The notes under the pieces were generated by a model that was not told the DNA's origin, ran no database searches, and saw nothing but the letters and a program-made list of their open reading frames with translations. A DNA stretch of 64,000 nt from an uncultured candidatus Porisulfidus sp. (lineage in GTDB: Bacteria; Pseudomonadota; Gammaproteobacteria; Poriferisulfidales; Oxydemutatoraceae). The stretch spans positions 175,292-239,291 of the forward strand of contig OZ244118.1 in the NCBI GenBank assembly GCA_965215765.1, written 5' to 3'. Each line of letters starts with the position of its first letter. Position 1 is the first letter of the stretch. This document shows positions 5,455 to 53,928 of the stretch, piece after piece. The position numbers and the translations under genes were made by a program.

Positions 5455-6362
5455 GGAAGCCTGCTCAGGAGCCATCGGCACCCGCACTTCTCGGCAAGGC
5501 AATTGCAGGAGAAGTACGTGAACTGTTCTGAAATAACGCCGAAACGCGATCACCAAGCCTGCAGATGGTTATCGGTGCCCTCACTTCTCGGAAAGGCAAT
5601 TGCAGGAGAAGTACGCGAACCGTTCTGAAATAACGCCGAAACGCGATCACCAAGTCTGCTCAGGGGACATCGGTGCCCGCACTTCTCGGCAAGGCAATTG
5701 CCGGAGAAGCATGCGAACCGTTCTGAAATAACGCCGAAACGCGATCATCAAGCCCGCTCAGGGGTTATCGTGCCCGCACCTCTCGGCAAGGCAGTTGCAG
5801 GAGAAGTACGCGAACCGTTCTGAAATAACGCCGAAACGCGATCATCAAGCCTGCAGAGGGTTATCGGCACCCACACTTCTCGGCAAGGCAATTGCAGGAG
5901 AAGTACGCGAACCGTTCTGAAATAACGCCGAAACGCGATCACCAAGCCTGCTCAGGGGACATCGGCACCCGCACTTCTCGGCAAGGCAATTGCAGGAGAA
6001 GTACACGAACCGTTATGAAATAACGCCGAAACGCGATCATCAAGCCTGCGTGGGTTATCGGCACCCGCACTTCTCGGCAAGGCAATTGCAGGAGAAGTAC
6101 GCGAACCGTTCTGAAATAACGCCGAAACGCGATCACCAAGCCTGCTCAGGGGTTATCGCCTCCCACACATCCCGGCAAGGCAATTGCAGGAGAAGCACGC
6201 GAACCGTTCCGAAATAACGCCGAAACGCGATCATCAAGCCTGCAGAGGGTTATCGGCACACTCACTTCTCGGCAAGGCAATTGCAGGAGAAGCACGCGAA
6301 CCGTTCTGAAATAACGCCGAAACGCGGTCACCAAGCCTACAGAGGGCTATCGGCACCCTGCA
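5455..6362. repeat. Non-coding tandem array, ~97 bp unit, about 9.3 copies
   Basis: Anchor gaaataacgccgaaacgcg recurs at 5530, 5627, 5725, 5822, 5919, 6017, 6113, 6211 and 6308 (spacing 96-98 bp). The unit is not a multiple of 3. Each unit carries the inverted repeat cttctc-N16-gagaag. Lies between convergent ispH and the SRPBCC gene. Confidence 0.95.
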
Positions 6363-6386
6363 GCCTGGATTGGGGTTGGATCGGTC

Positions 6387-6983
6387 TCAGTAAGGGGGTT
6401 TCGGCTTCTCGCCGTTTCCAGGAGCAAATATGGACGCAAGGTTATCCAGCCCCCCTCTGTAGACGCTTTTTATGACTCCAAGAGACATCTCATCTCTTTT
6501 TTCCTGATCCATGTCTTCGTTTCCGGCACTGTTAAAGCCGCCGGACCAGACAACCAGGCTGTGTCCCGCATCCTCGCCGGCTCCCACACTCAATTCGGAT
6601 ACATAGTCCATTACTGGCAGAACTTTCGGGTCAACTGCCAAGATTCGGTACTCATAGGATCGAGCCTGACCGTCATATCCCAAGAGTTCCTCGCTAATCG
6701 TTACGTCCTCCCCCAGGTAGAGAGTCCGTTTCGCGCCCGGGGTATGCCCCCCTTCGTGAACAGATTTCACAATCGCAGGATGCCACGCTTGCATGTTGCC
6801 GAAGTCCCCGAGAACAGCCCAGACCACTTCAGGTGGTGCTGCCACCTCAACGCTTTCAGAGACCATAAGAAGTCCTTTCGGCTGTTTTTCAGGTTTTTTG
6901 TCGCGCTCACACCCTTGAACGAGTGCCAGCGACAACAGGGAAAACGTTAATAGCGTCAGCCATTTCGGGTTTTTGGAATTCAT
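6387..6983 (-). CDS. SRPBCC-fold (MxaD/polyketide-cyclase-like) lipoprotein
   Basis: 198 aa. Signal peptide with lipobox-like LVQGC. Core VAAPPEVVWAVLGDFGNMQAWHPAIV... resembles SRPBCC ligand-binding domain proteins. Confidence 0.55.
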   Translation of the reverse strand: MNSKNPKWLTLLTFSLLSLALVQGCERDKKPEKQPKGLLMVSESVEVAAPPEVVWAVLGDFGNMQAWHPAIVKSVHEGGHTPGAKRTLYLGEDVTISEELLGYDGQARSYEYRILAVDPKVLPVMDYVSELSVGAGEDAGHSLVVWSGGFNSAGNEDMDQEKRDEMSLGVIKSVYRGGLDNLASIFAPGNGEKPKPPY

Positions 6984-7293
6984 GTTACCTCCGGGAAAAG
7001 CACTAAAGCGAACGGTGCTTCAAGTGTGCCCACGGCAGGGGATTTTATTAGTGGCAAGGTGATCCGTCAACAAGCTGAGGGAAAAGGATACCCACTTCTG
7101 GTCAGCTACGTATGTGTCTGTCGATTTTTGGTCTCTGGTGTGCGGGAAAAGCTTGTTGGCGTTCAAGAAAAAGAACTCGCGATCCAGCCTCTCATGTCAA
7201 GACCTGCCGTACGACTGGTCAGCACTTTGAATATTTTGTGCTTTGTAGGTGAGTGCGGGAGAGGAGAGAGGCAGTGCCCTGCAAGTTTCCTGC

Positions 7294-10014
7294 CTAACGT
7301 ACTGCGCCTCCCAAGAGAGTCCGTACTCGCACTCGCAGTGACGCTGATTCCGGAACCAGCGGCGTTGTGACACCACTCTGTTGGAAATACAGGAGGGTAT
7401 CGTTGCCAGACACCACATTGAAATAGCCTTGAAGCTCAAAATCAAGGCTAAATTCGCCGGTCAGATTGGGCTCAATTTCCTCCTCTATTCCCAAAGACAA
7501 CATCAAGATAGCCTCTTTGTCGCCACCAAGAACGAGGACGGAGTCGGTTCTTTTATCGCCAATTATCAGATAAACACAGTTGGTGGCAGAATCGGATTCG
7601 CACACCGTGACCGTATTGGACGTGACCATACTCCCGGAGGCTTCTGTCAATGTAACCTTAAAAGTGCTATATCTGTCTGGGGCAGGATCCAGTGTAACTT
7701 TCACCGCTACCGAAAGGGGGTTATGCGGTGCGTCAGTAGTAAACCCCAGTGTGCTTCCCGTAACCAGTACTGTGATCCGAACTGTAGACATGGGTTGCAT
7801 TGTGGCTTCACCCTGTTGAAAATTCAGAGGCAACTTGTTGCCGGAGCCTTCATTTGTATAGCCTTGAAGCTCAAAATCAAGGCTGAATTCGCCGGTCAGT
7901 CCGGGGTCAATTTCCCCTGCTATTCCCAAAGACAATATCAAGCGAGTCACACTGGTGCCACCAAGAACGGGGACAGTATCGGTTCCTGGATCACCGACTT
8001 TCAGATAAACGCAGTCAGTGTCAAAGTCGGACACGCACACCGGAACCGTGCCGGAGGTTTTTGTCAATGCAACTCTCAGAACTCTATCTTGTTCAGGGGG
8101 AGGATCCAGCGTGACGCTCGCCGTTACCGGAATGGCTGCATGCGGTGTATCAAGAGTAAATCCCAGTGTGCTTCCCTCTGCCATTACAGTGACCCGAACT
8201 GTAGTCAAGGGCCGTCCGGCATTACCTGGTTGAAAATTCAGGGGCAACCTGTTGCCGAAGCCTTCATTGATATAGCCTCGAAGCGCAACCACAAATTCAA
8301 ATTCGCCGGTCAGACCGGAGTCAATTTCCCCCACTTTCCCCAAAGACAGTATCAAGCGGGTCACACTGGTGCCAGCAGAAATGTCGGCTGTGCCGGTTCT
8401 TCCGCCGCCGATTCTCAAAAAAACGCAACCGGTGTCAGAAACGTATTCGCACACACGGACCGTACCTGAGGTTCTTGTCAATGCAACTCTCAGAACGCCA
8501 TTTTTTTCAGGGGCAGGAACCAGCGTGACGTTCGCAGTTACCGGAATGGTTACAGACGGTGAGGCAAGAGTAAACCCCAGTGTGTCTCCCTCAACCATTA
8601 CAGTGATCCGAACTGCAGGAACTACGGGGAATCCAATAATTCGGGGCAATTGTTCGGCAGTTCCGAAGTCCCAAATATCCGAACTCCAGTTTTCAAAGGG
8701 AGCGATGAGAAGGTTTTCGTTTCCGCAGACGGTACCGGGAGTGGTCGGACATTGTAGTTGGGCAAGTGCTACCTGGGTGGTGACGCCTGATGGTGCCGTT
8801 GCACCAGAGTGCCGTATCGTCGTGCCAACGTAATAGTTTCCAGTTGATGTGAGCGTTGCGGAACCACCTGTGTCGTACAGGAAACTGTTTTCAGGGGTCC
8901 CTGTTGCAAAATTGTTTTCCAGACGACCTGTTCCGTATATAAACCCCAACAAACTTCCAAACCTTAACCCTTGTGATTCAACCCCCCCCGTTGCATAACT
9001 GTTCCTGACCAACCAGGTTTCCTGTAGCTCGCCAATCAGCCCACCTGCCCTTAAGAAGTTAGCAGAACCATCAACATTCCCTGTTGAGTAGGAGTTCAGC
9101 ACTGTTGACCTTCTGCCAGCAGAAGTATCCCCCTGACCCAGTACGCCAATCAAGCCCCCCGCATTAGCACTGGCGGACACTGCCCCAGTCGCACGGCTTT
9201 CGCTGATCATGGACGCTATTGCGCGGCCGATCAGTCCTCCGGCTGTATATGCTCCAGCGTTGATGGATCCATTTGCAAAGCTGTTTAGTACACTTGAACT
9301 CGTCGCAAAGCCAATCAGTCCTCCGACAATTCTCTGAGACAGATCGAGCCTCGCTTGACTTCTCGTTGACCCCAAAACCAAATCACCCACCGCAGAGCAA
9401 CGTCTAACCGTCGCTGTGGAAAGCATACCGACCAGTCCTCCCAAGTATTCTTGGGCTCTAAATCCTGCGATCCGTGATGTTGGCCGCACCACCACATCGC
9501 TTCTACAGTCGCTCAAATTGGCATCTTTGAATAAGCCCACGAGCCCCCCGACTTGGTGACGACCCGCTACAGTCCCCGTTACTGTGCTTCTTTCTATGTT
9601 CCCCAGGCTTTCCCCCACCAGAGCTCCCACTAAATCACGTCCTGTAACGACCACGTTTACCAGGTTAAGGTTTCGTATTTCTCCACTGGAAGACAACTTG
9701 CCAAACAGCCCAACCCTTGATGAGGAAGGGCGATTAATGGTCAGATTGCTGATGGACATATTGTTCCCGTCGAAAGTTCCGGAGAAACCATCAGCGCCAC
9801 CAATCGGAACAAAATCCGTACCAGTGGCGTCAATGTCTACGCACAGCACATAATTGCTGGTCGGACTCGAAGTGATTGCCAGCAATTGGTTGATGTTTGT
9901 GATTGCGTAGGGAGTGTCGCTCCCGTTCCCTGAAGGGTTTTCACATGACGTTTGTGCAGACGCAGAACCTGCAAATATCAGTATCGCAAAAACGAGCACA
10001 CCGTACCGGCACAT
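7294..10014 (-). CDS. GLUG-motif beta-helix surface protein A (C-terminal ...LLGGAVR tail)
   Basis: ORF is open 7294..10125. Preferred start is ATG 10014 (MCRYGVLVFAILIFAGSASA|QT, a Sec signal). N-terminal module ...YVLCVDIDATGTDFVPIGG..FSGTFDGNNMSISNLTINR..RVGLFG. Then many VGGLVG/GGLIG (GLUG-like) repeats and three tandem ~138-aa beta-sandwich-like modules. Tail is SLRVRVRTLLGGAVR-stop. Confidence 0.8.
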   Translation of the reverse strand: MCRYGVLVFAILIFAGSASAQTSCENPSGNGSDTPYAITNINQLLAITSSPTSNYVLCVDIDATGTDFVPIGGADGFSGTFDGNNMSISNLTINRPSSSRVGLFGKLSSSGEIRNLNLVNVVVTGRDLVGALVGESLGNIERSTVTGTVAGRHQVGGLVGLFKDANLSDCRSDVVVRPTSRIAGFRAQEYLGGLVGMLSTATVRRCSAVGDLVLGSTRSQARLDLSQRIVGGLIGFATSSSVLNSFANGSINAGAYTAGGLIGRAIASMISESRATGAVSASANAGGLIGVLGQGDTSAGRRSTVLNSYSTGNVDGSANFLRAGGLIGELQETWLVRNSYATGGVESQGLRFGSLLGFIYGTGRLENNFATGTPENSFLYDTGGSATLTSTGNYYVGTTIRHSGATAPSGVTTQVALAQLQCPTTPGTVCGNENLLIAPFENWSSDIWDFGTAEQLPRIIGFPVVPAVRITVMVEGDTLGFTLASPSVTIPVTANVTLVPAPEKNGVLRVALTRTSGTVRVCEYVSDTGCVFLRIGGGRTGTADISAGTSVTRLILSLGKVGEIDSGLTGEFEFVVALRGYINEGFGNRLPLNFQPGNAGRPLTTVRVTVMAEGSTLGFTLDTPHAAIPVTASVTLDPPPEQDRVLRVALTKTSGTVPVCVSDFDTDCVYLKVGDPGTDTVPVLGGTSVTRLILSLGIAGEIDPGLTGEFSLDFELQGYTNEGSGNKLPLNFQQGEATMQPMSTVRITVLVTGSTLGFTTDAPHNPLSVAVKVTLDPAPDRYSTFKVTLTEASGSMVTSNTVTVCESDSATNCVYLIIGDKRTDSVLVLGGDKEAILMLSLGIEEEIEPNLTGEFSLDFELQGYFNVVSGNDTLLYFQQSGVTTPLVPESASLRVRVRTLLGGAVR

Positions 10015-10339
10015 TGACACCGCCAAAGAATGGCAGGGTTCACAGCACTTAACCTTGTTGGGCTCGTGCCTAAAGGTGGCACTCTTGCAAAGAGCCATCA
10101 ACACTGAAACGACTTGTTCTGACACAATAAATCGACCTCCTGGTTACCCTTAATTAAAGGGCAAATAAAGAAACGAACGAGATCGGGTAATTGTATGGGC
10201 TGCTCGGGAGTTTGTCTGTAAACTGTAGGCGGATGTTGAATTTCGGCTACAGATTCCACGCCACAACTTTGGGCGACAGACAGCCCGGCGATGACCTTGC
10301 CGGGTTCGTACCTTGAAGCAATATCGTGGTGACCCGAAT

Positions 10340-11030
10340 CATCTGCCAAGCAGACTTCCGGTTGCCCGGCACTTTTGTTTTTTCAGCTTTTCCTTTTCGT
10401 CGAGCAGCACAATGCGAAGAAATGGGGTGACCGCCTTGAACGGGAGCTCATTTTGTCCCGAAGGCTTCCAGGCTTCTGACGAAACAGGTGCGGTGCAGCT
10501 CATCGTGTGTGCGCACAGATTTTTCAGGGCTTCCTGCCGGAAGGTGCAGCCAGTATCGGTCTTTCCACAACGAGACAGTCAGCCCCGGCACACAGTGCCT
10601 GTTCCGGCTTGGGCTCGAGTTTGTGGTTGTTTGTTGGTGTTTCGTCCATACGAATGCCTGGCGTAAAAATTGCAAATCCCCGACCATTCTGCCTGTGTGC
10701 CGCCGCCACTTCGCTACCGGATGCCGACTCCGTGACACCCGGGCACTTGGTCTGCCTCGCCCGAACACAAATCAACGCGCCGAGACTCCCTTCATTGACC
10801 TGTTTTTCGCCTCTTTTTGACCCAGACAGCTTAAAAACGTAAACAACAGAACCTTCAGGTGTGGGATACAGTTCTCCACCACCGCTTCCAGCATGACCTC
10901 ATGACGATACACATCGAGAAAAGAAATTCCGTTGTCTGACAGGTTTTGCACTGAGATACCCACCGTTCCTGTAACATCGTGAAGTTTCAAACCCACGAAC
11001 ACTCTTGTGTCACGATTCAGTAGCCGGTTT
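10340..11030 (-). pseudogene. Decayed pyrF copy (frameshifted, 5'-truncated)
   Basis: Collinear nucleotide similarity to pyrF 18832..19530. ORF pieces 10524..10775 (...AIFTPGIRMDETP...) and 10772..11002 (...LKLHDVTGTVG...) sit in different frames. Confidence 0.75.
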
Positions 11031-11059
11031 GCAGAAAATGTTGCGGCATTCAGGAGCCA

Positions 11060-11335
11060 GAGAACGGTGCGTCAAATAGTCACCGGGTTCCATAGTTTTA
11101 CTTCCGGAGAAAACCGCGAAACTTTCTTGTGGGGCACACATTTGAGGCGAATAGTTGCGCAATACTCGTTGTCCGGTTGCAAAACGCAGGAGTTTGATCG
11201 CTGGAGACCCCCGTTACTCTTAACGCCAGGTTTTTCGTGTTTATGACACGGCGTCGTGATGACCTGCTTCAGGCTGGATATGGCTGGAAGCTTACGACCG
11301 GACAGGGCTTTGAAACCATTGTGCTTTGCGGGCAG
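11060..11335 (-). pseudogene. gshA fragments (two pieces joined by an internal deletion)
   Basis: Matches gshA around 19868..19910 (FAVFSGSKT region) joined to around 20350..20510 (SLKQ.ITTPCHK.EK.GVK.NG...VLQ.DNEY.ATIR). ORF 11072..11383 reads this mosaic. Confidence 0.7.
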
Positions 11336-11392
11336 TGCCCTGCTTGTGGAAGAGAAGGAGTGGTGTGTGGCAGTGCCCTGCAAGTTTCCTGC

Positions 11393-13654
11393 CTAACGTA
11401 CCGCGCCGCCCAAGAAAGCCCGCATCCGCAGCGAAGCCTCCCCCCCTGTGGCATTTGTGGCATTACCCTGTTGAAAATTCAGGCGGAACTTGTTGCCGGA
11501 GCCTACATTGAGATAGCTTTGAAGCCGAACCTCAAGTCTAAATTCGCCGGTCTGACCGAGGGCGATTTCCCCCGCTCTTTCCAAAGACAGTTTCAGGCGA
11601 GCCGCGTCGGTGCCAGCAGAAACGAAGACTGTGTCGGTTGTTTTGCCGTCTATTTCGATGATTGGATAAACGCAGTTGGTGTCAGACTCGGATCCGCACA
11701 CCGTGACCGTACCGGAGATTTTTGTCAATGTAACTTTCAGAGTGGTATCTTCATCAGGGGCAGGAACCAGCGTGACGCTCGCAGTTACCGGAATGGGCGC
11801 AGAAGCCCCCCTCAAAGTAAATCCCAGCGTACTTCCCCCAACCTCTACAGTGACCCGAACTGTAGGATCTCCGGGGAGTCCAACAAGTCGGGGCAATTGT
11901 TCGGCATTCCCTAAGTCCCAAATATCCGGACTCCATTCTTCAAAGGGAGAGATGCCATCGCAGACGTCATCCGGAGCTATCGGACATTGTAGTTGGGCAA
12001 GTGCCACCTGTGTGGTGACGCCCGACGGAACCGCTGCGCCAGCGAATCGTACCGTCGTGCCAGTGTAATAGTTCCCGATTGGTGTGAGATTTACGGAATC
12101 ACTTATGTTGTACATGAAACTGCTTTCAGTGCTCCCGGTTGCAAAACTGTTCTCCAAGATACCTGTTCCGAACACATACCCCAATAAACTTCCAAATTCT
12201 ACATTCTCTGCCAGTCTGGAGTTCCCTGTTGCGTAACTGTTCCTGACCAACCAAATTTCCTGCACCTCGCTAATCAGCCCACCTGTTCTGATCTGAGGGA
12301 TGATACCAAAGTCATCAACATTCCCCGTTGAGTAGGAGTTCAGCACTGTTGACCTTCTAAAGGTAGAATTATCCCTACCGAGTATGCCAATCAAGCCACC
12401 CGCACTCCTTGAAGCGGTCACTGTCCCGCTCGCAAAGCTTTCACTGATCATGGTATTTATTGCGCGACCGATCAGTCCTCCGGCTGTAGCTGCTCCGGCG
12501 TCGATCTGTCCAGTTGCGATGCTGTTTAGTACACTCGAGCCCGTCGCAAGGCCAATCAGTCCTCCGACAATTCTCTCTGCCAACTCGATACGCATTTGAC
12601 TTTTCCCGTTCGGCAAAGCCAAATTACCCGTTGCTGAGCAACGGCGAACCGTTGCCCCGGAAAGCTCACCAACCAGTCCCCCCAAGTATTCTTTTGTTTT
12701 TTGTGGTGCGGTTTCTGCTTTTGTCCGCACCACCACATCGCTTTTACAGTCGCTCAAATTGGCATTGCTGAATGCGCCGACGAGTCCGCCGACTTGGTGA
12801 CGTCCCACTACAGCTCCCGTTACCGAGACTTTTTCTATGTTCCCCAGGCCTTCCCCTACCAGAGTGCCCACAAAATCACGTCCGGTAACGACCACGTTTA
12901 CCAAGTTAAGGTTTCGTATTTCTCCACCGGAAGCCAATTTGCCAAACAGCCCAACCCTTGATGAGGAAAGGCGATTAATGGTCAGATTGCTGATGGACAT
13001 ATTGTTCCCGTCGAAAGTTCCGGAGAAACCATCAGCGCCACCAATCGGAACAAAATCCGTGCCAGCGGCATCAATGTCCGCGTCCAGCACATAATTGCTG
13101 CCTGGTCTCGCAGTGATTGCCTGCAGTTGGACGAAGGTTTCGATTCTGAATGCGCCCACGAGCCTGCCGACATAATCACGTCCCGTTACAGTTCCCGTTA
13201 CCGCGCTTCCTTCTATCTTCCCCAAGCTTTCCCCCACCAGACCTCCCACATAATCACGTCCTGTAATGACCACGTCTACCAGGTTAAGGTCTCGTATTTC
13301 TCCACCGGAAGCCAATTTGCCAAACAGCCCAACCCTTGATGAGGAAGGGCGATTAATGGTCAGATTTCTGATGGTCATATTGTTCCCGTTGAAAGTTCCG
13401 GAGAAACTACTCTTGCCTCCAATCGGAACAAAATCCGTGCCAGTGGCATCAAGGTCTGCGCCCAGCGTATACCAGGCTTTCGGCATTGAAGTAATTGCCT
13501 GCAATTGGCAGACGGTTTCTATTCTGTAAGGATCGGAGTCTTTCCCGGTTCCGCCCCCTGAGGGGAGGCTCTCCTTGTTTTCACATGACGTTTGTGCAGA
13601 CGCAGAACCTGCAAATATCAGTACCGCAAAAACGAGCACACCGTAACGGCACAT
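11393..13654 (-). CDS. GLUG-motif beta-helix surface protein B (C-terminal ...FLGGAVR tail)
   Basis: ORF is open to 13765. Preferred start is ATG 13654 (MCRYGVLVFAVLIFAGSASA|QT). Two copies of the DxDATGTDFVPIGG...GTF(N/D)GNNM.I.NLTINR module, GLUG-like repeats, one ~138-aa C-terminal module. Tail is SLRMRAFLGGAVR-stop. Confidence 0.8.
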   Translation of the reverse strand: MCRYGVLVFAVLIFAGSASAQTSCENKESLPSGGGTGKDSDPYRIETVCQLQAITSMPKAWYTLGADLDATGTDFVPIGGKSSFSGTFNGNNMTIRNLTINRPSSSRVGLFGKLASGGEIRDLNLVDVVITGRDYVGGLVGESLGKIEGSAVTGTVTGRDYVGRLVGAFRIETFVQLQAITARPGSNYVLDADIDAAGTDFVPIGGADGFSGTFDGNNMSISNLTINRLSSSRVGLFGKLASGGEIRNLNLVNVVVTGRDFVGTLVGEGLGNIEKVSVTGAVVGRHQVGGLVGAFSNANLSDCKSDVVVRTKAETAPQKTKEYLGGLVGELSGATVRRCSATGNLALPNGKSQMRIELAERIVGGLIGLATGSSVLNSIATGQIDAGAATAGGLIGRAINTMISESFASGTVTASRSAGGLIGILGRDNSTFRRSTVLNSYSTGNVDDFGIIPQIRTGGLISEVQEIWLVRNSYATGNSRLAENVEFGSLLGYVFGTGILENSFATGSTESSFMYNISDSVNLTPIGNYYTGTTVRFAGAAVPSGVTTQVALAQLQCPIAPDDVCDGISPFEEWSPDIWDLGNAEQLPRLVGLPGDPTVRVTVEVGGSTLGFTLRGASAPIPVTASVTLVPAPDEDTTLKVTLTKISGTVTVCGSESDTNCVYPIIEIDGKTTDTVFVSAGTDAARLKLSLERAGEIALGQTGEFRLEVRLQSYLNVGSGNKFRLNFQQGNATNATGGEASLRMRAFLGGAVR

Positions 13655-14090
13655 TGTCGCCGCCAAAGAATGGAAGGGTTCACAGCGGTTAACCCTGTAT
13701 TGCCACTCGGCTACCGTGTTCTTCATGAAAATGAAGCTGGGGTGCCTTCGCCCCTTTGGAAACATACCCCAAGTGCTGATTCCATCGTTAGACAGGAGCC
13801 TGACTTTGGGGATTTCTTTTTAGGTCTGCGCCTGAGAGTGGCACGCCGGCAAAGAGCCACCGACTCTGAAATGATTTGTTCTGACACGGTAACTGACCCC
13901 TTATTAAAGGCTAAACAAACAAACAAACGAGATTGGGTAATTGTACGGGCTGCTCGGTCGTTTGCATATTATAGCGCAGGAGGATGTTGAAGCTTGATCG
14001 CAGTTTTAACACCACAACTTTGGGCACCAGACAGTCTGTCTGTGGCCTTGCAGGGTTCGTACCTTGAAGCAATATCGTGGTGACCTGAAT

Positions 14091-14370
14091 CATCTGCCAA
14101 TCAGGCTTCCGGCTACCCGGCACTTTTGTTTTTTCAGCTTCTCCTTTTCGTCGAGAGGCACAATGCGATGAAATGGGGAGGCTCCCTCGACCAAGAACTC
14201 GTTTTGTCCTGAAGCCTTCCATGCTTCTGACGGAACAGGTGCGGCGCAGCTCATCATGCGTACGCACAGATCTTGCAGGGCTGGCTGCACGGAAGGTGCA
14301 GCCAGCATCGGTCTTCCCACAACGATACAGTCAGTCCCGGTACGCAGTGTCTGTTCCGGCTTGAGTGCGC
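14091..14370 (-). pseudogene. pyrF 3'-terminal fragment
   Basis: ORF 14090..14320 reads ...GRPMLAAPS.QPALQDL..RMMSCAAP.PSEAW..SGQN..L.EGASPFH.IV.LDE.EKLKK, which matches the C-terminal ~75 aa of pyrF (18832..). Confidence 0.75.
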
Positions 14371-14384
14371 TCTAGCCAGAGGGC

Positions 14385-14625
14385 AGTGCGCGAAATGGTT
14401 GCTGGATTCCAAGGTTTTACTTCCGGAGAAAACCGCGAAACTTTCTTGTGAGGCACACATTTGAGGCGAATAGTCGCGCAATACTCGTTGTCCGGTTGCA
14501 ATACGCAGGAGTTTGATCGCTGGTGACCCCCGTTATTCTTAACGCCACGCTTTTCGTATTTATGACACGGCGTCGCGACGACCTGCTTCAGGCCTGATAC
14601 GGCTGGAAGCTTACAACCGGTCAGT
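14385..14625 (-). pseudogene. gshA fragments (same mosaic as 11060..11335)
   Basis: ORF 14331..14843 contains ...LKQVVATPCHKYEKRGVKNNGGHQRSNSCVLQPDNEYCATIRLKCVPHKKVSRFSPEVKPW.... Same deletion junction as the 11.1 kb copy. Confidence 0.7.
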
Positions 14626-14667
14626 GCTTTGCAGGCGAGTGCGGGAGAGGGGCAGGCGGTTTCCTGC

Positions 14668-17600
14668 CTAACGTACCGCGCCGCCCAAGAAAACCCGTAT
14701 TTGCACTGATGCCGAATCCGGAACCGGCTGCATTGTGGCACCCCCCTGGTGAAATTCCAGGAGGACATTGTTGCCGGAAACCGTGTATGGATAGCCTGGA
14801 AGCTGAACCACAAGCATAAATTTGCCGGTCTGACCTCGGGCAATCTCCCCCTCTATTCCTATTTCCAAAGACAATGTCAAGATAGCCTCATCGGTGCCAC
14901 GAGGAACGTGAACGGTGTTGGTTCTTCTATTGCCAATTTTCAGAAAAACGCAGCCGGTGTCAGAAACGGAACTGCACAACCTGACCGTGCCGGAGGTTTT
15001 TGTCAATGCAACTCTCAGAACGTTATTGCTATCAGGGGCAGGGTTCAGCATGACTTTCACCTCGCGCGAAAGGGGTATATGCGTTGTGCCAAGAGTAAAC
15101 CCCAGTACGTTTCTTCCTTCCATAGGAAACCCAACAGTGATCTGAACTACAGGAATGGGGATTAGCGTAGGTAATTCCGCATCCGTTCCGAAGTCCCAAA
15201 TGTTCGGGTTCCAGTTTTCAAAGGGAGAGATGCCATCGCAGACGTCACCCGGAGTGGTCGGGCATTGCAGTTGAGCAAGAGCTACCTGTGTTGTGACGCC
15301 TGACGGTGCCATCGTGCCAGTGTAATAGTTCTCGTTTAATGTGAGAGTTGCGGAACCATTTACTTGGTATATGAATCCGCTCTCAGGACTTCCGGTTGCA
15401 AAACTGTTTTCCACAAGCCCTGTTCCGAATGCATACCCTAATAAACTTCCAAACTTGACCCCTTGCGGTTCAACATTCCCCGTTGCGTAACTGTTGCTGA
15501 TCACCCAGATTTCCTCTAGCTGTCCAATCAGCCCACCTGCCCTCACGACGTTAACAGAACCACCGACATCCCCCGTTGAGTAGGAGTTCAGCACTCTTGA
15601 AGTTCTGACACGGAATCCAGCGCCAGAATCTGAACCCAGCCAGCCAATCAAACCACCCGCTTTCTGTGTGGCACTTACTGCCCCACTCGCATAGCTTTCG
15701 CTGACCATCGATTCCACTGCAATACCAATCAGCCCCCCGGCTATATCTGCCATAGCGTTGATCTGTCCGGATGCGTAACTGTTTTTCACGACCGAGCGAT
15801 CTGCCAAGCCAATCAACCCTCCGACAATTCTATTAAGCTGAGCGAGCCGCCTTTGACTTCGCTCGCTCGACAAAACCAAATCGCCCGTCGCTGAGCAACG
15901 GCTAACCGTCGCCCTGCTAAGATGACCGACCAGCCCCCCCAAGTATTCTGCTCCTTGTCCTGTCGCGCTCAGTCTTGGATGCACCGTCGCACTGCTTTCA
16001 CAATCACTCAAAGTGCCGTTCCGAAATCTTATGTCCGAGTCACCGAATCTGCCCGCGAGTCCGCCGACACTGCTAACTCCTGAAACAGATCCCTCTACCG
16101 AGACTCTACTTATGTTCCCCCGGCTCCCCTTGCCTACCCCCACGAGTCCGCCAACAACGTTAGTTCCTGAAACAGAACCCGTTACTGTGCTGTCACTGAT
16201 GACCCCGTTGCTTTCTCCAGCCAGACCTCCTATGAGCTGACCCTGACCAATGGCTCTGCTGCTTTCTGCAACTTGTACGTTTACCAGGCTAACGTTCCGA
16301 ATTTCTCCACCGGCAGACGACAAACCTACGAGTCCGCCGACTCGGTAACGTCCCGCCACAGATCCGTTTAGTGTGCCTGCACCATCTATTGACCCCCCGC
16401 TATCTCCCACCATGCCACCGACAATAGTTGCGCCTGAAACGTTCATGTTTTCCATGTTAGTGTCTCGAATTTCTCCACCGGAATGCAATCTGCCTACGAG
16501 GCCGCCGACCACTGTACCTACGAGGGGACCGACCACTGTAGCAGTTAATTTCTTTCCTACAAATCCCGATACCCTACCTCCTACTATGAGCCCCCGGCTT
16601 TCCCCCACCAGACCACCGACAATAGTTACGCCTATAACGTTCAGGTTTACCAGGCTAAGGTCTCGAATTTCTCCACCGGAATCCAGGTTTCTGAACAGTC
16701 CAACCCTTGATGAGGCGCGATTGATGGTCAAGTTGCTGATGCTCATACCATTCCCGTCAAATGTTCCGGAGAACCCCGCACCACCGCCCCCGATTGGTGT
16801 AAAGCCAGCACCGTTATTCCACGACCCGGCATCTGTGGCATCAAGGTTCGCCGCCAGTTTGTAATGGGCAGTCAGGTTTTCCTGTATTGCCTGCAGTCGG
16901 CAAATCGTATCAATGTTGTAAGGGTTGTTTATAGAGCCATCTTCTCCAACTGCGTAGTTCTTGTCAATTTGAATGCAATCCGAGGGACGGTTGGCTCGTG
17001 GAGCACCAGTTAGCGTAGGTAATTGCGCTGAAGTCCCGAAGTTCCAGAAGTATGGATCCCAGTTTCTGAAAGGAGCGATGCTGCCATCGCAGGCCTCATC
17101 TGCAGAGGTCGGACATTTTAGTTGGCTAAGCTTAATCCGGGTGACTCCTTGCTCTGTGCTCTGTATGTCGGGTGATTCAATGAAATAGTTCCCACTTGAT
17201 GTGACTTTTGTGGAACTTTGTACGAAGCGAATGAACTGGCGTTGAGCGCTCCCGGTTGCAAAACTGTTTTCCACAACCCCTATTCCAAATGCAGCACCCA
17301 ATAAACTTCCAAAAATTACGTTTCTTGCCTCGTTGTCGTTGTTCCCTGTTGCGTAACTGCCACTGACCAGCCAGGTTTCCTGTAGCTCGCCAATCAGCCC
17401 TCCCAGCCTTTTAAATCTTATTTGTTCATTAAGTCGTAAGTTGACATCTCCCGTCGAGTAGGAGTTCAGCACTGCTGACCTTCTGCCAGAGTCAGAACCA
17501 ACCCCCAGTATGCCAATCAATCCACCTGCACTCCTCAAAGTGTACACTGCGCCACTCGCATAGGTTTCGCTGATCATGGCGTTTATTGCGCGACCGATCA

Positions 17601-18465
17601 GTCCCCCGGCTGTATCTGCCCCAGCGTCTATCTGTCCAGTTGCGAAGCTGTTTTGCACAGTTGAGCTTTCTGCATGTCCAATCAGCCCACCGACAATTCT
17701 CACTGTCTGATTGAGATTCGTTTGACTTTTCCCGTTCTCCGGCAAAACCAAATCACCCGTCGCTGAGCAACGGATAACCGTTGTCCCGGAAAGCTGACCG
17801 ACTAGACCCCCCAGGTATTCTGCTGCGTTGTTTGCTGCGCTCCGTGTTATTGGTCGCACGACCACATCGCTTTTACAGTCGCTCAAATTGGCATTTCTGG
17901 ATATGCCCACGAGCCCGCCGACCTGGTGACGTCCCGCCACAGTTCCCGTTACCGAGACTTCTTCTATGTTCCCCCGGCTTTCACCCACCAGACCTCCCAC
18001 TAAATCACGTCCCGTTACAGTTCCCGTTACCGAGCTTTTTTCTATGTTCCCCAGGCTTTGCCCCACCAGAGCTCCCACATAATCAAGTCCTGTAACGTCC
18101 ACGTTTACCAGGTTAAGGTTTAGTATTTTCCCACCGGAATTCAACTTGCCAAACAGCCCAACCCTTGATGAGGAAGGGCGATTGATTGTCAGATTGCTGA
18201 TGGACTTTCTGTTTCCGTTGAAAGTTCCGGAGAAACCAACAGTGCCCCCAATTGGAGCAAAATCCGTACCATCGGCATCTATGTCGTCGACCAGACTATA
18301 AAATCCCGTCGGAGTTGAAGTGAGTGCCTGAAATTGGCAGACGGTGCTGATTTCGTAAGGATCGTTAACAGTCCCCTTCGCTGTAGAGTATTCACATGGT
18401 GTTTGTGCAGACGCAGCACCTGCAAATATCAGTATCGCAAAAGCGAGCACACCGTAACGGCACAT
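14668..18465 (-). CDS. GLUG-motif beta-helix surface protein C (C-terminal ...FLGGAVR tail)
   Basis: ORF is open to 18633. Preferred start is ATG 18465 (MCRYGVLAFAILIFAGAASA|QT). Two N-terminal-type modules, a long run of VGGLVG/GGLAG repeats, one C-terminal ~138-aa module. Tail is SVQIRVFLGGAVR-stop. Confidence 0.8.
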   Translation of the reverse strand: MCRYGVLAFAILIFAGAASAQTPCEYSTAKGTVNDPYEISTVCQFQALTSTPTGFYSLVDDIDADGTDFAPIGGTVGFSGTFNGNRKSISNLTINRPSSSRVGLFGKLNSGGKILNLNLVNVDVTGLDYVGALVGQSLGNIEKSSVTGTVTGRDLVGGLVGESRGNIEEVSVTGTVAGRHQVGGLVGISRNANLSDCKSDVVVRPITRSAANNAAEYLGGLVGQLSGTTVIRCSATGDLVLPENGKSQTNLNQTVRIVGGLIGHAESSTVQNSFATGQIDAGADTAGGLIGRAINAMISETYASGAVYTLRSAGGLIGILGVGSDSGRRSAVLNSYSTGDVNLRLNEQIRFKRLGGLIGELQETWLVSGSYATGNNDNEARNVIFGSLLGAAFGIGVVENSFATGSAQRQFIRFVQSSTKVTSSGNYFIESPDIQSTEQGVTRIKLSQLKCPTSADEACDGSIAPFRNWDPYFWNFGTSAQLPTLTGAPRANRPSDCIQIDKNYAVGEDGSINNPYNIDTICRLQAIQENLTAHYKLAANLDATDAGSWNNGAGFTPIGGGGAGFSGTFDGNGMSISNLTINRASSRVGLFRNLDSGGEIRDLSLVNLNVIGVTIVGGLVGESRGLIVGGRVSGFVGKKLTATVVGPLVGTVVGGLVGRLHSGGEIRDTNMENMNVSGATIVGGMVGDSGGSIDGAGTLNGSVAGRYRVGGLVGLSSAGGEIRNVSLVNVQVAESSRAIGQGQLIGGLAGESNGVISDSTVTGSVSGTNVVGGLVGVGKGSRGNISRVSVEGSVSGVSSVGGLAGRFGDSDIRFRNGTLSDCESSATVHPRLSATGQGAEYLGGLVGHLSRATVSRCSATGDLVLSSERSQRRLAQLNRIVGGLIGLADRSVVKNSYASGQINAMADIAGGLIGIAVESMVSESYASGAVSATQKAGGLIGWLGSDSGAGFRVRTSRVLNSYSTGDVGGSVNVVRAGGLIGQLEEIWVISNSYATGNVEPQGVKFGSLLGYAFGTGLVENSFATGSPESGFIYQVNGSATLTLNENYYTGTMAPSGVTTQVALAQLQCPTTPGDVCDGISPFENWNPNIWDFGTDAELPTLIPIPVVQITVGFPMEGRNVLGFTLGTTHIPLSREVKVMLNPAPDSNNVLRVALTKTSGTVRLCSSVSDTGCVFLKIGNRRTNTVHVPRGTDEAILTLSLEIGIEGEIARGQTGKFMLVVQLPGYPYTVSGNNVLLEFHQGGATMQPVPDSASVQIRVFLGGAVR

Positions 18466-18831
18466 TGACGCCGCCAAAGAATGGAAGGGTTCACGGTGCT
18501 TAACCCTGTATTGCCACTCGGCTACCGTGTTCTTCATGAAAATGAAGTTGAGGAGGCTTCGCCCCTTTGGAAATTTTTCTTTAGGCCTGCGCCCGCGAAT
18601 AGCCATAGGCTCCGAAATAATCAGCTTTGACACCGTAATTAACCTCCTTCTCTTTTATAGAGGGTATAAATACACACGAATCTGCACATTATACAGGCTG
18701 CGCTGGAGTTTGTCCATAAATGCAGTCGGCTGTAGTTTCCACGCTACAACTTTGGGCACCAGACAGCCCGGCGATGACCATGCTTCGCTCGTACTTTGAA
18801 GCAATATCGTGGGATCTGAATCATCTGCCAA

Positions 18832-23677: not shown

Positions 23678-24121
23678 TTAGTGCCATGCTTCGGAAGGCA
23701 GTTTCCTGCCCATGGTATCAAGCGAAAGAGCCATTCCTTCGCCTGAGACGGGGGTGGCGGTCAGTCGGCAGCAGTGCTGCAAGTCCTCATCACAGGACTC
23801 ACCCGTGATGTGATAGTTCCCTCGTGCAGAAACTGCCTGACCTGCTTCTGCGGTGACACCAAGTTCCGAAACCAGGTCAACGGTATAGCGTTGGTGTTTG
23901 GCAAAGTGGCGAGCCTGCAAAACCATAATCTCGGAAAGTGCCAACCGCGCCTCAGTCAAAAACAAGCGTTGGCGGTGCTGATCGTAAGCGGGATATGCCA
24001 ACAGGCTCAGTACGGCGATGATTCCCATGGCAACCAGCAGTTCCAACAATGAAAAGCCGCGCGCACGGTTCCTCCATTTGGGCTTGCGAAAATAATCGGG
24101 AGTCGGGAGAGTCGGTTTCAA
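23678..24121 (-). CDS. pilE: Type IV pilin (PilE-like)
   Basis: 147 aa, TTG start overlapping the pilX stop. Prepilin N-terminus RGFSLLELLVAMGIIAVLSLLAYPAY. Confidence 0.75.
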   Translation of the reverse strand: MKPTLPTPDYFRKPKWRNRARGFSLLELLVAMGIIAVLSLLAYPAYDQHRQRLFLTEARLALSEIMVLQARHFAKHQRYTVDLVSELGVTAEAGQAVSARGNYHITGESCDEDLQHCCRLTATPVSGEGMALSLDTMGRKLPSEAWH

Positions 24122-24594
24122 TAGCTGAAATCTGCCCCCTCAAGGCGAACCGTACCGGCAGGGGATTTGCTGAATAAAAGCAGAGCCGTAATTTTGTTTC
24201 CGGCATCATCCAGGACGTGGGCATTCAACAGAACCTGAGTGTTTACGAGTTGGGCTTCTTCTGTGCCATCTGGTCTCCATAGGGGCGGGATCAGGAGCGA
24301 AGCTGTGCACCCGGAAGTGATGCCCTCGCTGTTCCCAAACTCGCTGCTGCAGAGCTTGGCGTGAACAAAAATCTCGTCGAAGTCCGGCGTGGCGGTGTCT
24401 AACAGTCGCAGCCGCGAAGAGGCTTCCAACACGGTGTTTCTCATTGCCGTGTGTAAATCGACTTTCCGCTCAAAAGTGGTGGTGATCCGCGACAAGTCCC
24501 CAGTTTGATGCAGGCTGGCGGTAATGAGCATGTTTCCCAGAAGCAGGAGCACGATCGCCGGAATCAGAATGCTGCCATGTGTTCTTGCGCCCAC
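24118..24594 (-). CDS. pilX: Type IV pilus minor pilin/assembly protein PilX-like
   Basis: ORF is open to 24717 but overlaps pilW. A GTG at 24594, 7 nt after the pilW stop (GAAGG upstream), gives 158 aa starting MGARTHGSILIPAIVLLLLGNMLITASL (PilX_N-like hydrophobic segment). Confidence 0.6.
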   Translation of the reverse strand: MGARTHGSILIPAIVLLLLGNMLITASLHQTGDLSRITTTFERKVDLHTAMRNTVLEASSRLRLLDTATPDFDEIFVHAKLCSSEFGNSEGITSGCTASLLIPPLWRPDGTEEAQLVNTQVLLNAHVLDDAGNKITALLLFSKSPAGTVRLEGADFSY

Positions 24595-24601
24595 GCCGCC
24601 T

Positions 24602-25579
24602 TCAGGGCACCACTGTGAACGTATGCCATGCGGAGTTTGCCGATTCTTCTTCAGTCTGTACGGGTGCGCGAGGCGATCTTTCTTCAACTTGCAACTGGAC
24701 TTCCAGTGCCAAATCATGGCTCTCCGCGCTTTTCAGCGCCGCGACACGGAGTGAGGTGATTCCCTGCAGCCATTCCTCGCGAAACATTCCGGCTCGTTTG
24801 TAATGCCCGTAATCTGCGACCACGAGCCGTTTGCGAAACAGAGAAAATTGTGCGTTTTCAGCATGGACGCCTGTTGCCAGATAGATGGCCTGTGGCCGAT
24901 AAGGAATCAACAACGCGCCGCGCGGGAATGTGTGGCTTTCCCGCGCCCGGCAAGCCCTGTCTGCGTCAAAGACCACTGCGCAGTTGCCAGGCCTGACCGC
25001 AGAGCCCTCGTCGTAATGGACGCGCGTCCCACGTCTGCTGACTCTTGTAACCTGAAACAAGGCGGCCAGGTCTTCATGGCACGCCACCGCCAACTCGCCA
25101 ACTTTTACTTTGGTGGGAACCGCAAGGTCAAAAAAACGGTTCGGCTCTTCGTGTTCCAGTATCGGGGCAGGCAACGAAGCCTGTAGACCAATGAGCACGT
25201 CGCTGAATTCGTTTCGCCCGTCCGGGTGAGGTGTCACTTTTGCAACCGCCCGGGCTCTGTCGCTCGTGGCGGAATGAGCGAAACGAAACTCCTCGAAAGG
25301 AGTCGCCCAGTAATCATAAGCGGAGCGATTCACCAGGTTAATGCGCTGCGCCGCATAAGGGCACAAGGCACGACGACTGCCATGCAATGCGTCCTGCAAG
25401 AGGCGGTCAGCGACAAAAGCGGTTTCAGTCATGGAAAGGCGTTCTCTGAGCCAGAGATGGTTCGTCAGCAAGCTTTGGTGTGCATTGATCATGACCAAGG
25501 TTATAAACACCCCGAAAGTCGTCGCCAGCAGCATTTCCAGCATAGTGAAGCCGCGGGCGAATTTTCCTGGGTCTCTCAA
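24602..25579 (-). CDS. pilW: Type IV pilus minor pilin PilW
   Basis: 325 aa, TTG start with AGGAAG upstream. N-terminus ARGFTMLEMLLATTFGVFITLV. Size and position match PilW. Confidence 0.7.
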   Translation of the reverse strand: MRDPGKFARGFTMLEMLLATTFGVFITLVMINAHQSLLTNHLWLRERLSMTETAFVADRLLQDALHGSRRALCPYAAQRINLVNRSAYDYWATPFEEFRFAHSATSDRARAVAKVTPHPDGRNEFSDVLIGLQASLPAPILEHEEPNRFFDLAVPTKVKVGELAVACHEDLAALFQVTRVSRRGTRVHYDEGSAVRPGNCAVVFDADRACRARESHTFPRGALLIPYRPQAIYLATGVHAENAQFSLFRKRLVVADYGHYKRAGMFREEWLQGITSLRVAALKSAESHDLALEVQLQVEERSPRAPVQTEEESANSAWHTFTVVP

Positions 25580-25985
25580 ATCTTCCTATGGTGCGACCAT
25601 GAGATTTTTGTGCAATGTTTGCTCATCGCCAGTTAAGTCCTGCCACTTGATCGAAAGCTGAAGCGAGCGCTCCTGAGCCACCAGCCTGGCATCCCCTTGG
25701 CGCAGAACAAGCATGGGACGGCTGGTGTCGCTGCATGCCGGGTTGTCTGCCTAGGTGCCAAGCCGAAATTTCCTGGGTCTCTCAATTCTTCCTATGGTGC
25801 GACCATGAGGTTTTTGTGCAATGTTTGCTCATCGCCATTTAAGTCCTGCCACTTGATCGAAAGCTGAAGCGAGCGCTCCCGAGCCACCAGCCTGGCATCC
25901 CCTTGGCGCAGAACAAGCATGGGACGGCTGGTGTCGCTGCATGCCGGGTTGTCTGCCCAAGTGCCGAGCCGACATTTCCAGTGTC
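25558..25985. repeat. Tandem duplication (~207 bp x2) spanning the pilV 3' end and pilW start
   Basis: Segment 25558..25764 repeats 25765..25985. The anchor cctatggtgcgaccatgag occurs at 25585 and 25791. The extra copy sits in the pilV-pilW spacer. Confidence 0.9.
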
Positions 25986-26295
25986 TGAGAAAAAACTTGG
26001 TGCGCTCCGGCTGGCCGCAGGCCGTGACGGAACAGTCCTCGCTCGCTTGAGGGATGTTTTGGTAATCACTGCCTGATACGCCCACCAGCATATTGTTGGA
26101 GGTGTCTGCCCAGCGCAGAAAGTCATAAAACATGAGGTTGGCCTGGATGCGGTGCAGCAACTCCTCATCTGTGTTCAGCAAGTCGTTTTGCAAATGGATC
26201 ATGCCCAGCAAGCCGAAAGAGACCAAACCCATTGCCAATAGCAGCTCCAGAAAACCGTAGCCTGCCTGCTTGCGAAACTGGCGACAAGTTCTCAC
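25792..26295 (-). CDS. pilV: Type IV pilus minor pilin PilV
   Basis: 167 aa. N-terminus QAGYGFLELLLAMGLVSFGLLGM. Overlaps the fimT stop. Confidence 0.7.
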   Translation of the reverse strand: MRTCRQFRKQAGYGFLELLLAMGLVSFGLLGMIHLQNDLLNTDEELLHRIQANLMFYDFLRWADTSNNMLVGVSGSDYQNIPQASEDCSVTACGQPERTKFFLRHWKCRLGTWADNPACSDTSRPMLVLRQGDARLVARERSLQLSIKWQDLNGDEQTLHKNLMVAP

Positions 26296-26948
26296 GCTTC
26301 GCAGTCGCTCAATTCACTCTCTCGGGAGGAGCGCAACCGGCCACTGCGGATGATGACAATGCCTGACAATGCTTTCCGGGTACCGGTGCGGCAGAAAAAG
26401 AAATGGCCGTTTGTGTGGGCGCGTCCTTGTTCTGAAAAACGAACGAAGTCTGAAAAAGCGTTGGTCTTTATTGAGAAGCCAGAGAGGAGAGGCATCCCCA
26501 CATTGACCAATCTGGCGTTTGGTGGTGGGGTCGCGAAGTAGCCCGGGTCTAGAACTTCCAATACGACCCAGCCTTGTGCGTAGTCACGAGAAAGGCATCG
26601 TGCCTGACTTTCTCCGGGACAGACAAAAATGACCCGCCCGCTCGTCAGTGCGTATGAACGGGCAAACTTCAAAGCATTGATGAATTTGCGTGGCTCCTCT
26701 TTGTCCGTCCGGTTTTGAAACAGCTCGCGATAGCCATAAACACCCCACGTCAGAAATATGGCAATAAGCGCTGTGACCGCCAGCAATTCCAGCAGCGAAA
26801 AGCCTGTGTTTTTAAGCGTGGCCGGCTGGCTGAGGCCAGCAACCCGAGGTATGAGCGCATTGATTTTCCTGTTGTTTGGCACCGCATTCGCAATCGTGTC
26901 CCGGAATACTGTCAGGTGAAGTGGCAAAAACTCCACAGTCCGGGACAA
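26292..26948 (-). CDS. fimT: GspH/FimT-family minor pilin
   Basis: Prepilin motif NTGFSLLELLAVTALIAIF followed by a GspH-like domain (...FINALKFARSYALTSGR.VFVCPG). The true start may be internal to the 218-aa ORF. Confidence 0.65.
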   Translation of the reverse strand: MSRTVEFLPLHLTVFRDTIANAVPNNRKINALIPRVAGLSQPATLKNTGFSLLELLAVTALIAIFLTWGVYGYRELFQNRTDKEEPRKFINALKFARSYALTSGRVIFVCPGESQARCLSRDYAQGWVVLEVLDPGYFATPPPNARLVNVGMPLLSGFSIKTNAFSDFVRFSEQGRAHTNGHFFFCRTGTRKALSGIVIIRSGRLRSSRESELSDCEA

Positions 26949-35905: not shown

Positions 35906-36042
35906 TGTGGCATTATGAGCCGCTACTAAAAAACTGATAAAAGCCATTTAGCAATTGTCTGTTTAGCCCGCGATGATGCCCCGTCATGGGCGGTGTTGCC
36001 CATGAGTAAAAATCACTCACGGGTTTGGTGCCGGGTGAAGTG

Positions 36043-36924: not shown

Positions 36925-36941
36925 CCTGGTGTCTACGCTTC

Positions 36942-53650: not shown

Positions 53651-53928
53651 CGTTTCTCGCAGACAGCGTTGCAAGCAGAAAGTGCCCACGTCTGCGTGTA
53701 ACACGAATTCTTGAGCCAGGGTGCGTCGCCTCCCGGTTCTGAACAGATCAAAAGTGCCGCCGCCAATCGGACACTGCTTCTTCCTGACAGCTTCGTCAGA
53801 GGCACCCCCACTCGTCATTTCGGTCGCTCTTGGGTGATACAGGGTTGACGCAACGCAGTATTTCCCTCTTTGGCCAATCGTCTGTCCGGTTGTTGCCATC
53901 AGAGGGCTCTTGCGAGGCGGGCTGGTGT

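Follow-up and report, generated by a model that had tools for sequence, protein, structure and literature searches.

In this study, we investigated a 64-kb stretch of DNA (64,000 nucleotides of contig OZ244118.1, from an uncultured Candidatus Porisulfidus sp.; hereafter the window), and we found that five of its large exported proteins, belonging to two unrelated families, end in the same short C-terminal peptide, referred to below as the tail. The consensus of this tail is hydrophobic-R-hydrophobic-R-x-[FL]-L-G-G-A-V-R-COOH. The tail is a real and unannotated peptide tag, which occurs across protein families, is under selection at the level of the peptide and belongs to a narrow, uncultured lineage. 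C-terminal sorting and docking signals are known as a kind, and this instance fits no described family.

The tail and its carriers in the window

A six-frame search of the whole window returned exactly five occurrences of GGAVR followed by a stop, each of them ending one listed open reading frame (ORF), and a degenerate DNA pattern for R-x-[FL]-L-G-G-A-V-R-stop gave five matches, compared with 0.00 expected from 100 dinucleotide shuffles. All five ORFs that a preliminary description of this DNA had reported as ending in the tail were thereby recovered. The carriers, with the parts of the first of them, are as follows:

7294..10125 (-), GLUG / Peptidase_M26_N-like beta-helix protein 1, an ORF of 943 aa ending in SLRVRVRTLLGGAVR and a stop
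7297..7335 (-), tail of GLUG protein 1, RVRVRTLLGGAVR, 13 codons, with the stop codon at 7294-7296
7336..8613 (-), three tandem immunoglobulin-like (Ig-like; integrin-calf / Calx-beta-like) modules of GLUG protein 1
11393..13765 (-), GLUG protein 2, 790 aa, with the tail SLRMRAFLGGAVR at 11396-11434
14668..18633 (-), GLUG protein 3, an ORF of 1321 aa, with the tail SVQIRVFLGGAVR at 14671-14709
50197..52491 (+), Ig-like repeat protein, 764 aa, with the tail QLRVRTFLGGAVR at 52450-52488
61521..63734 (+), Ig-like repeat protein, 737 aa, with the tail QLRIRTFLGGAVR at 63693-63731

All three minus-strand genes matched Pfam Glug (E 8e-19 to 1e-47) and Peptidase_M26_N, and the two plus-strand genes gave weak Big_9/MG2 matches together with an all-beta structure model; Pfam and BLASTP thus agree with the earlier division into three GLUG proteins and two unrelated Ig-like proteins. 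In the GLUG genes, an internal MCRYG... is the probable start, rather than the start of the ORF (at nt 10014 in GLUG protein 1). Kyte-Doolittle profiles revealed an N-terminal hydrophobic peak followed by ASA/AQA in 5/5 proteins (1.7-2.1 in a 19-residue window), and the N-termini are of Sec type in both families, reading MCRYGVLVFAILIFAGSASA|Q in the GLUG proteins and M..GYGFFAACRKIACL.ILLAFSSSAQA|I in the Ig family. No C-terminal hydrophobic segment was detected in the last 60 residues of any of the five (maximum 1.09), so that the Sec signals and the lack of a C-terminal transmembrane (TM) helix, both proposed earlier, were confirmed for the whole set. A Sec-type signal was likewise observed on every carrier with a readable N-terminus in the other genomes discussed below, the N-termini of three carriers lying outside the data.

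With reference to the extent of the shared peptide, BLASTP between the GLUG and Ig families detected similarity limited to the terminal 12-16 residues. When the C-terminal 150-170 residues of the two families were compared with hhalign, the final 13 columns alone aligned (E=1.5e-6, probability 90%), the profiles reading QlRIRtFLGGAVR in one family and R~Rv~~lLGGAVR in the other. With the tail taken off, profile-profile comparison found no similarity between the families (best match probability 0.2%). Judging from these alignments, the element common to both families is a 13-residue peptide and not a domain; a shared full-length C-terminal domain (CTD) was considered and rejected, since the last modules without the tail show no homology. 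When 753 windows of 12 residues were ranked by conservation over 15 Ig-family proteins, the tail came first (0.98 vs a mean of 0.70), above the signal peptide, and in the GLUG family LGGAVR is invariant and the strand before it variable. Two or three Arg lie on one side of the tail, opposite its hydrophobic residues, and it has a GG turn and ends in Arg. A hidden Markov model (HMM) of the tail had no internal match in any carrier and no match in any other ORF of the window; the tail is strictly terminal in its carriers.

At the C-terminus of the GLUG proteins stand one to three modules of ~140 residues in tandem, which are modelled as Ig-like beta-sandwiches and resemble integrin calf, Calx-beta CBD12 and RbmA-type domains. 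Internal modules run ...NFQQGxAT(linker)TVRITVLVTGSTLGF..., the last part being the first strand of the following module, and the terminal module runs ...FQQGxAT(linker)SLRMRAFLGGAVR and stops. The BLAST high-scoring segment pair of internal vs terminal module continues into the tail, and the first strand of the module, TVRITVLVTGSTL, aligns without gaps with the tail SLRMRAFLGGAVR in the same hydrophobic register, TGSTL standing at internal module starts in the position of the invariant GGAVR. The GLUG tail therefore looks like an orphan, donor-strand-like element that occupies the position of the next module's A-strand; as the alignment reads, its exposed face is turned to Arg and the invariant GGAVR takes the place of its turn. 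In the Ig family (50197-52491), a linker of 8 residues separates the tail from the last G-strand, NRITVNIVP. AlphaFold 2 (AF2) left the tail of the Ig protein unstructured outside the last domain and placed that of the GLUG model as a strand, both with low confidence, and we take these placements as weak indications only.

The ~100-170 nt upstream of the probable MCRYG start are conserved among the GLUG paralogs and across genomes (window ~10015-10125, 13655-13765 and 18466-18633, with equivalents in the related loci L046 and L080). This stretch, which may serve as a promoter or as a conserved 5' leader, reads through as an ORF extension (...EPFHSLA.SM) and has no Rfam match.

Conservation of the peptide and distribution among genomes

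Twelve tail-coding sequences were compared, drawn from the window, from four loci of two Ca. Oxydemutatoraceae genomes and from one genome of the candidate phyla radiation (CPR). The GLUG genes use GGC/GGA GGC GCG/GCA GTA CGT TAG and the Ig genes GGT GGT GCC GTC CGC TGA. Over the 12 tails, Gly is encoded by GGT, GGC, GGA and GGG, Ala by GCC, GCG, GCA and GCT, Val by GTC, GTA, GTG and GTT, and Arg by CGC, CGT and CGA, with TGA, TAG and TAA as stops and 0 amino-acid changes within LGGAVR. Since codons and stops vary across families and genomes while LGGAVR stays fixed, selection acts on the peptide. The preliminary description had reached the same view from the differing codons of the two families, arguing for conservation of a peptide and not of a DNA repeat. 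The 3' flanks of the tail genes differ from one family to the other. Ig-family paralogs with bodies of 48% identity are, by contrast, near-identical over their last codons and the ~75 nt past the stop, so part of the uniformity within this family is due to concerted evolution. Readthrough of the stop codon into a hidden anchor was rejected, as TAG, TGA and TAA are all in use.

The scan of genomes and metagenomes that had been suggested as a check disclosed ~30 tail-carrying proteins in at least four Ca. Oxydemutatoraceae assemblies (Gammaproteobacteria), plus a single small protein in a Paceibacterota (CPR) genome. Recent gene conversion among five paralogs, which had been named as the finding that would overturn the tag, does not describe this distribution, which takes in several genomes, a homologue of 26% identity and a CPR genome. 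The Ig family has 15 cluster representatives in 5.8 billion proteins, and 15/15 end in LRIRTFLGGAVR; its genes are arrayed in tandem, four to five or more together, and in relatives of 61521-63734 the counterpart opens a tandem array, which extends past the window end. In the degenerate-pattern scan of the genome collection, whose taxonomic range is a lower bound, true tail matches were long ORFs with 24-32 bits against the tail HMM, the rest scoring 21.6 bits or less. Among the matches listed, true tails were found only in OZ243039.1 and OZ250161.1 (Ca. Oxydemutatoraceae) and in OZ244141.1 (Ca. Paceibacterota). OZ243039.1 is syntenic with the window (GshA 90% identical), which places the window in Ca. 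Oxydemutatoraceae as well, and a protein of OZ250161.1 (L018), 26% identical to the Ig proteins of the window, keeps FRIRMFLGGAVR, 9/12 tail residues. The described member of Ca. Oxydemutatoraceae is a sponge symbiont (PMC11685487). A GLUG gene of OZ250161.1 (L029 2890-6476(-)) is apparently split into ORFs of 697 aa and 435 aa with the tail retained, possibly through a frameshift or as a pseudogene.

A full pattern scan of the Joint Genome Institute (JGI) metagenomes gave 52 matches, all of which were judged to be chance (short ORFs, TGG for the stop, Ser for Arg). When 1.84 billion representatives were searched exhaustively with HMMs, the only matches were members of these two families and internal strands of the protein P0019, which are Calx-beta-like 'FRVVLGGAVRA' strands; a tail-only match (~25-28 bits) falls below the reporting threshold of this search, which thus leaves room for further carrier families. 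Against the index of 5.8 billion proteins, the tail-only profile shared words with 6 candidates, of which 0 scored, and the GLUG C-terminal modules obtained 1 match, the word index being too lossy for either query. In two Acidobacteriota metagenome-assembled genomes (L070, L098), a conserved family of small ORFs (78-94 aa) ends in ...GLHYR[TA]LLGGAVR and a stop. These ORFs are unrelated to the tail carriers, and their ending is probably coincidental.

The CPR occurrence was located on OZ244141.1, a 512-kb Ca. Paceibacterota chromosome, in a locus (L105) of 43-46% GC with pgk, HIT, recJ, comEC and sodA as neighbours, a gene context typical of CPR. Two adjacent Thr-rich genes lie at 6214-8000 of this locus. 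An ORF that runs off the locus end has the exact tail, ...VVKLRLRVFLGGAVR and a stop, and is one of the three carriers with the N-terminus outside the data; its 289-aa paralog has a signal peptide and ends in ...VVKLRLNAFLGSAIVP and a stop, with the tail degraded (LRLNAFLGSAIVP). The exact-tail ORF also matches L-R-hydrophobic before R, residues that the search pattern did not require, and chance is therefore unlikely (rough estimate p~0.03).

Possible role of the tail and comparison with known signals

No C-terminal sorting-signal model of Pfam or NCBIfam matched the five proteins, in NCBIfam even at E<=1, no PDB chain matched the tail profile in a sequence search, and the literature on LGGAVR and on the taxon held nothing relevant to the motif. 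A type I secretion or RTX signal does not suit proteins with Sec-type signals (the five of the window and the other readable carriers) and no HemolysinCabind/RTX match, and an autotransporter is not indicated either, with no autotransporter, ShlB or POTRA match and a C-terminal region made of Ig-like modules. Likenesses to ubiquitin-like proteins (LRLRGG), to double-glycine leaders and to C-end rule (CendR) peptides were dropped, because the motif does not stand in the right positions and the proteins, which are Ig-like or beta-helical, are exported by Sec. The C-terminal strand of E. coli GspK (...SAQIYRRTLQLY) bears a vague likeness to the tail, which was not used as evidence.

We tentatively favour, with somewhat less than even confidence, the reading that the tail is a lineage-specific donor-strand docking tag to a shared acceptor. 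The carriers would be exported by Sec, and beyond their last folded Ig-like domain the tail would extend as an amphipathic beta-strand with no pairing partner, followed by small residues (GGA) and a basic end, and would insert as donor strand into the shared acceptor by beta-strand complementation. One surface structure could thereby mount many interchangeable and fast-evolving adhesin bodies, namely GLUG beta-helices and Ig-like arrays. Docking itself, strand complementation and the identity of the acceptor are all three what we infer. Such a tail would resemble the chaperone-usher and type V pili, in which an Ig-like fold receives its missing strand in trans, from a terminal segment with alternating hydrophobic residues and small ones (Gly); the tail here aligns to the module's own first strand. 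In contrast to those systems, the tail carriers are large, multidomain and not pilins, and no acceptor groove was identified; chaperone, usher and type V pilin genes, as well as an acceptor with a missing strand, were not seen in the 64 kb.

A precedent with a similar anatomy comes from the type IV pilus. According to a preprint of Ellison et al. (2026), the last ~10-12 residues of the Sec-exported PilC/PilY1 complement PilK/PilX, and this terminal strand is necessary and partly sufficient for the function of the tip complex (PMC12918778). The same work predicts that MshQ, which is no PilY1 homologue, docks likewise, so that the beta-propeller is not obligatory for strand docking, and describes GspK of the type II secretion system as supplying the strand in cis (PMC12918778). 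Modelled myxobacterial complexes agree with strand docking (Treuner-Lange et al., cited in PMC13190605). Like PilC/PilY1 and MshQ, the tail carriers are large adhesins exported by Sec, with a strictly terminal strand of ~10-13 residues that is independent of the variable body: the tail is 13 residues long, strictly terminal and alternating, and is modelled as a strand in the GLUG protein at a low predicted local distance difference test (pLDDT) score. Unlike PilC/PilY1 and MshQ, they have no propeller, lie outside the pilin operon, are present as many paralogs and have two unrelated bodies, and docking is proposed here by analogy; the tail also has an invariant GGAVR, which is not mentioned for PilY1 in PMC12918778 or PMC13190605. 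Because the anatomy of a large exported adhesin with a short terminal strand is the same, the pilus tip would be the most concrete candidate acceptor, with a PilX/PilK-type minor pilin of the tip complex as leading candidate in parallel with PilC/PilY1 and MshQ. Taken alone, this choice of acceptor is unlikely. The window itself contains a set of such genes:

23678..26948 (-), type IV pilus minor-pilin operon with fimT/gspH-like, pilV-like, pilW-like, pilX-like and pilE-like genes

Prepilin motifs (G|F..LE) were recognized in four proteins of this operon, and its pilX-like protein has no Glu5, as in PilK/PilX proteins. Purely by analogy, the operon may be considered a candidate acceptor for the tail. 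No pilY1 was found in it, the pilX-like and pilE-like genes abutting each other.

Several observations weigh against the docking tag, and against the pilus tip in particular. No acceptor protein was identified in the window or in the related loci read, and the Pfam Neisseria_PilC beta-propeller of PilY1/PilC had no match in 5/5 proteins. The tail genes are neither in nor next to the minor-pilin operon, which holds no large gene: ~5 kb with pyrF, gshA, an amidase gene and macro-domain genes separate it from the GLUG array, and the distance to the Ig genes is 25-40 kb. The absence of pilY1 is that seen in a 64-kb window of a 3.0-Mb genome. It would be unusual for ten or more paralogs to compete for a single tip site, and the complete lack of variation in LGGAVR suggests recognition by an enzyme more than a strand for beta-augmentation, which would be tolerant of changes. 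The pLDDT of the two AF2 models is 47 and 56, falling to 25-30 at the tail, and the constraint on the tail in the CPR genome appears weak, given the degraded paralog.

In a rival reading, which follows the proposal of the preliminary description, the tail would be recognized and processed by a dedicated peptidase or transpeptidase that cuts LGGAVR at GG or just behind it; the new C-terminus would then either be set free or become bound covalently to a lipid or a polymer of the surface. This machinery would be sortase-, PorU- or rhombosortase-like, without a membrane-spanning segment in the substrate, and we regard it as doubtful. In its favour, LGGAVR is invariant in every Oxydemutatoraceae copy and the preceding strand varies, which is the pattern of the LPXTG, PEP and GG motifs, and the tag crosses families on exported proteins of one lineage. 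Signals of the type described by Haft are tripartite, with a motif, a TM helix and a basic cluster. The tail resembles LPXTG, PEP-CTERM and GlyGly-CTERM as a short, lineage-restricted C-terminal motif on many unrelated exported proteins, and shares GG with GlyGly-CTERM; it differs from them in that it stops three residues past GG, with no hydrophobic segment, no HMM match and no cognate enzyme seen. LPXTG is absent and the highest Kyte-Doolittle value (19-residue window) over the final 60 aa is <=1.09, neither a PEP motif nor a TM helix was detected, and GG is followed by just AVR; none of the three signals had an NCBIfam match. A TM helix or basic cluster that would hold the substrate at a membrane enzyme is thus missing, and no exosortase, rhombosortase, sortase or PorU-like gene was present in the window or in the related loci read.

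The positional homology of the GLUG tail with the next module's A-strand could also mean that the tail is a structural cap without any part in sorting, the leftover first strand of a truncated Ig-like module, which stabilises the last domain and was homogenised by concerted evolution within the families after being copied once between them. The near-identical 3' ends of the Ig family (last codons and ~75 nt of flank), which point to gene conversion or a conserved 3' element, and the location of both families in duplication-prone arrays agree with such an origin. Nevertheless, the last domain of the Ig family is unlike the GLUG module and yet has the same tail after a complete G-strand and linker, internal module starts show TGSTL where the tail has the invariant GGAVR, and the choice of synonymous codons varies among families and genomes while the amino acids stay the same. 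AF2, at low confidence, does not pack the tail on the last Ig-family domain. We consider the cap unlikely, to about the same degree as cleavage at GG.

The tail might instead be an export or targeting signal at the outer membrane, dispensable afterwards, such as a variant of the beta-signal read by the beta-barrel assembly machinery (BAM) or the translocation and assembly module (TAM), or a signal for another translocon. In outer-membrane proteins (OMPs) and in cargo of the type IX secretion system (T9SS), signals of this sort stand at the C-terminus, and the tail is a C-terminal amphipathic strand on envelope proteins that are delivered to the periplasm and presumably bound for the surface. 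The T9SS CTD offers a comparable C-terminal tag, on unrelated Sec-exported surface proteins of a diderm and in an Ig-like context, and directs surface attachment. However, this CTD is a complete beta-sandwich of 70-100 residues in Bacteroidota, whereas only 13 residues are common here, the preceding modules are unrelated between the families, the organism is gammaproteobacterial and no Pfam or NCBIfam match (TIGR04183/Por_Secre_tail) was obtained. As compared with the OMP beta-signal, the tails end in Arg and not in an aromatic residue, and the carriers are soluble beta-helix or Ig-like proteins without a barrel domain match. The same tail also occurs in a genome of the Paceibacterota, which are generally considered to have no outer membrane, and an outer-membrane signal is very unlikely. 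The feature tests and the absence of HMM matches therefore sustain the earlier statement that the tail is unlike PEP-CTERM, GlyGly-CTERM, LPXTG and the OMP beta-signal.

It is equally improbable that the tail binds a non-protein ligand, acting as a cationic amphipathic mini-hairpin (RxRxFL-GG-AVR) on lipopolysaccharide or another anionic envelope or host polymer in a non-covalent tether. Its Arg and hydrophobic faces, GG turn and terminal Arg would suit this, and could speculatively fit a CPR epibiont attaching to a Gram-negative host, but such binding seldom demands six invariant residues including G, G, A and V.

Genomic surroundings and implications

Besides the tail genes and the minor-pilin operon, the following features of the window were recorded:

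6387..6983 (-), SRPBCC (Polyketide_cyc2) lipoprotein directly downstream of the GLUG array, with the lipobox LVQG|C and a Pro-rich C-terminus ending in PPY
5474-6358, 22213-23457, 27053-27685 and 34262-35904, sites of tandem repeats
42471-45069, 48216-48742, 52827-53819 and 53916-55259, further sites of tandem repeats
36025-38224 (+), type III secretion genes YscJ/SctJ, YscK and SctL

The SRPBCC lipoprotein was observed as a neighbour in three genomes, namely that of the window, that of the locus L168 (5189-5785) and the distant OZ250161 (L029 752-1702(-)), and its association with the tail may be plain synteny. The window is unusually rich in long-period tandem DNA repeats with units of 97-477 bp in 2-9 copies that are 89-97% identical, some of which span gene fragments (macro-domain ORFs at 21853-23486 and the 3' end of dnaG); they may be real biology or an assembly artefact. 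A dnaG fragment (48788-49687(-)), 85% identical to residues 229-437 of the full dnaG (54828-56591(-)), lies just upstream of the Ig gene 50197-52491, and in a related strain (L167 7515-7916) a glnA fragment and an integrase are located inside the Ig-gene array. From these fragments and the integrase beside Ig genes it follows that the arrays of the Ig family are prone to duplication and recombination while their 5' and 3' ends are conserved, which recalls loci of variable surface proteins. The type III secretion genes are consistent with a host-associated lifestyle.

Type IV filaments are common to Gammaproteobacteria and CPR, and could therefore explain the presence of the tail in both. In an extended form of the docking tag, which we hold to be quite unlikely, the tail would be a universal plug by which the symbiont mounts any of a dozen fast-diversifying adhesins on one acceptor, for which the type IV pilus tip, in the place of PilY1, would be the most attractive choice. 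A co-occurring CPR bacterium would have acquired the plug and could use it to dock its secreted proteins either to an equivalent type IV filament of its own or to the acceptor of its gammaproteobacterial host, as molecular mimicry in an episymbiosis.

The lineage concerned is narrow and uncultured, and the function is one that we infer. Should the CPR occurrence be more than chance, it would connect the envelope biology of cells with very different plans. With the pilus tip as acceptor, the carriers would be natural interchangeable tip adhesins that use strand complementation of the PilY1 type, and the tail would provide a compact tag for engineered surface or pilus display. As a docking or sorting tag, the tail would represent a new class of C-terminal surface-display signal, 13 residues long, without a TM segment and portable between unrelated passengers, and would offer a handle on the display and variation of adhesins in uncultured sponge symbionts.

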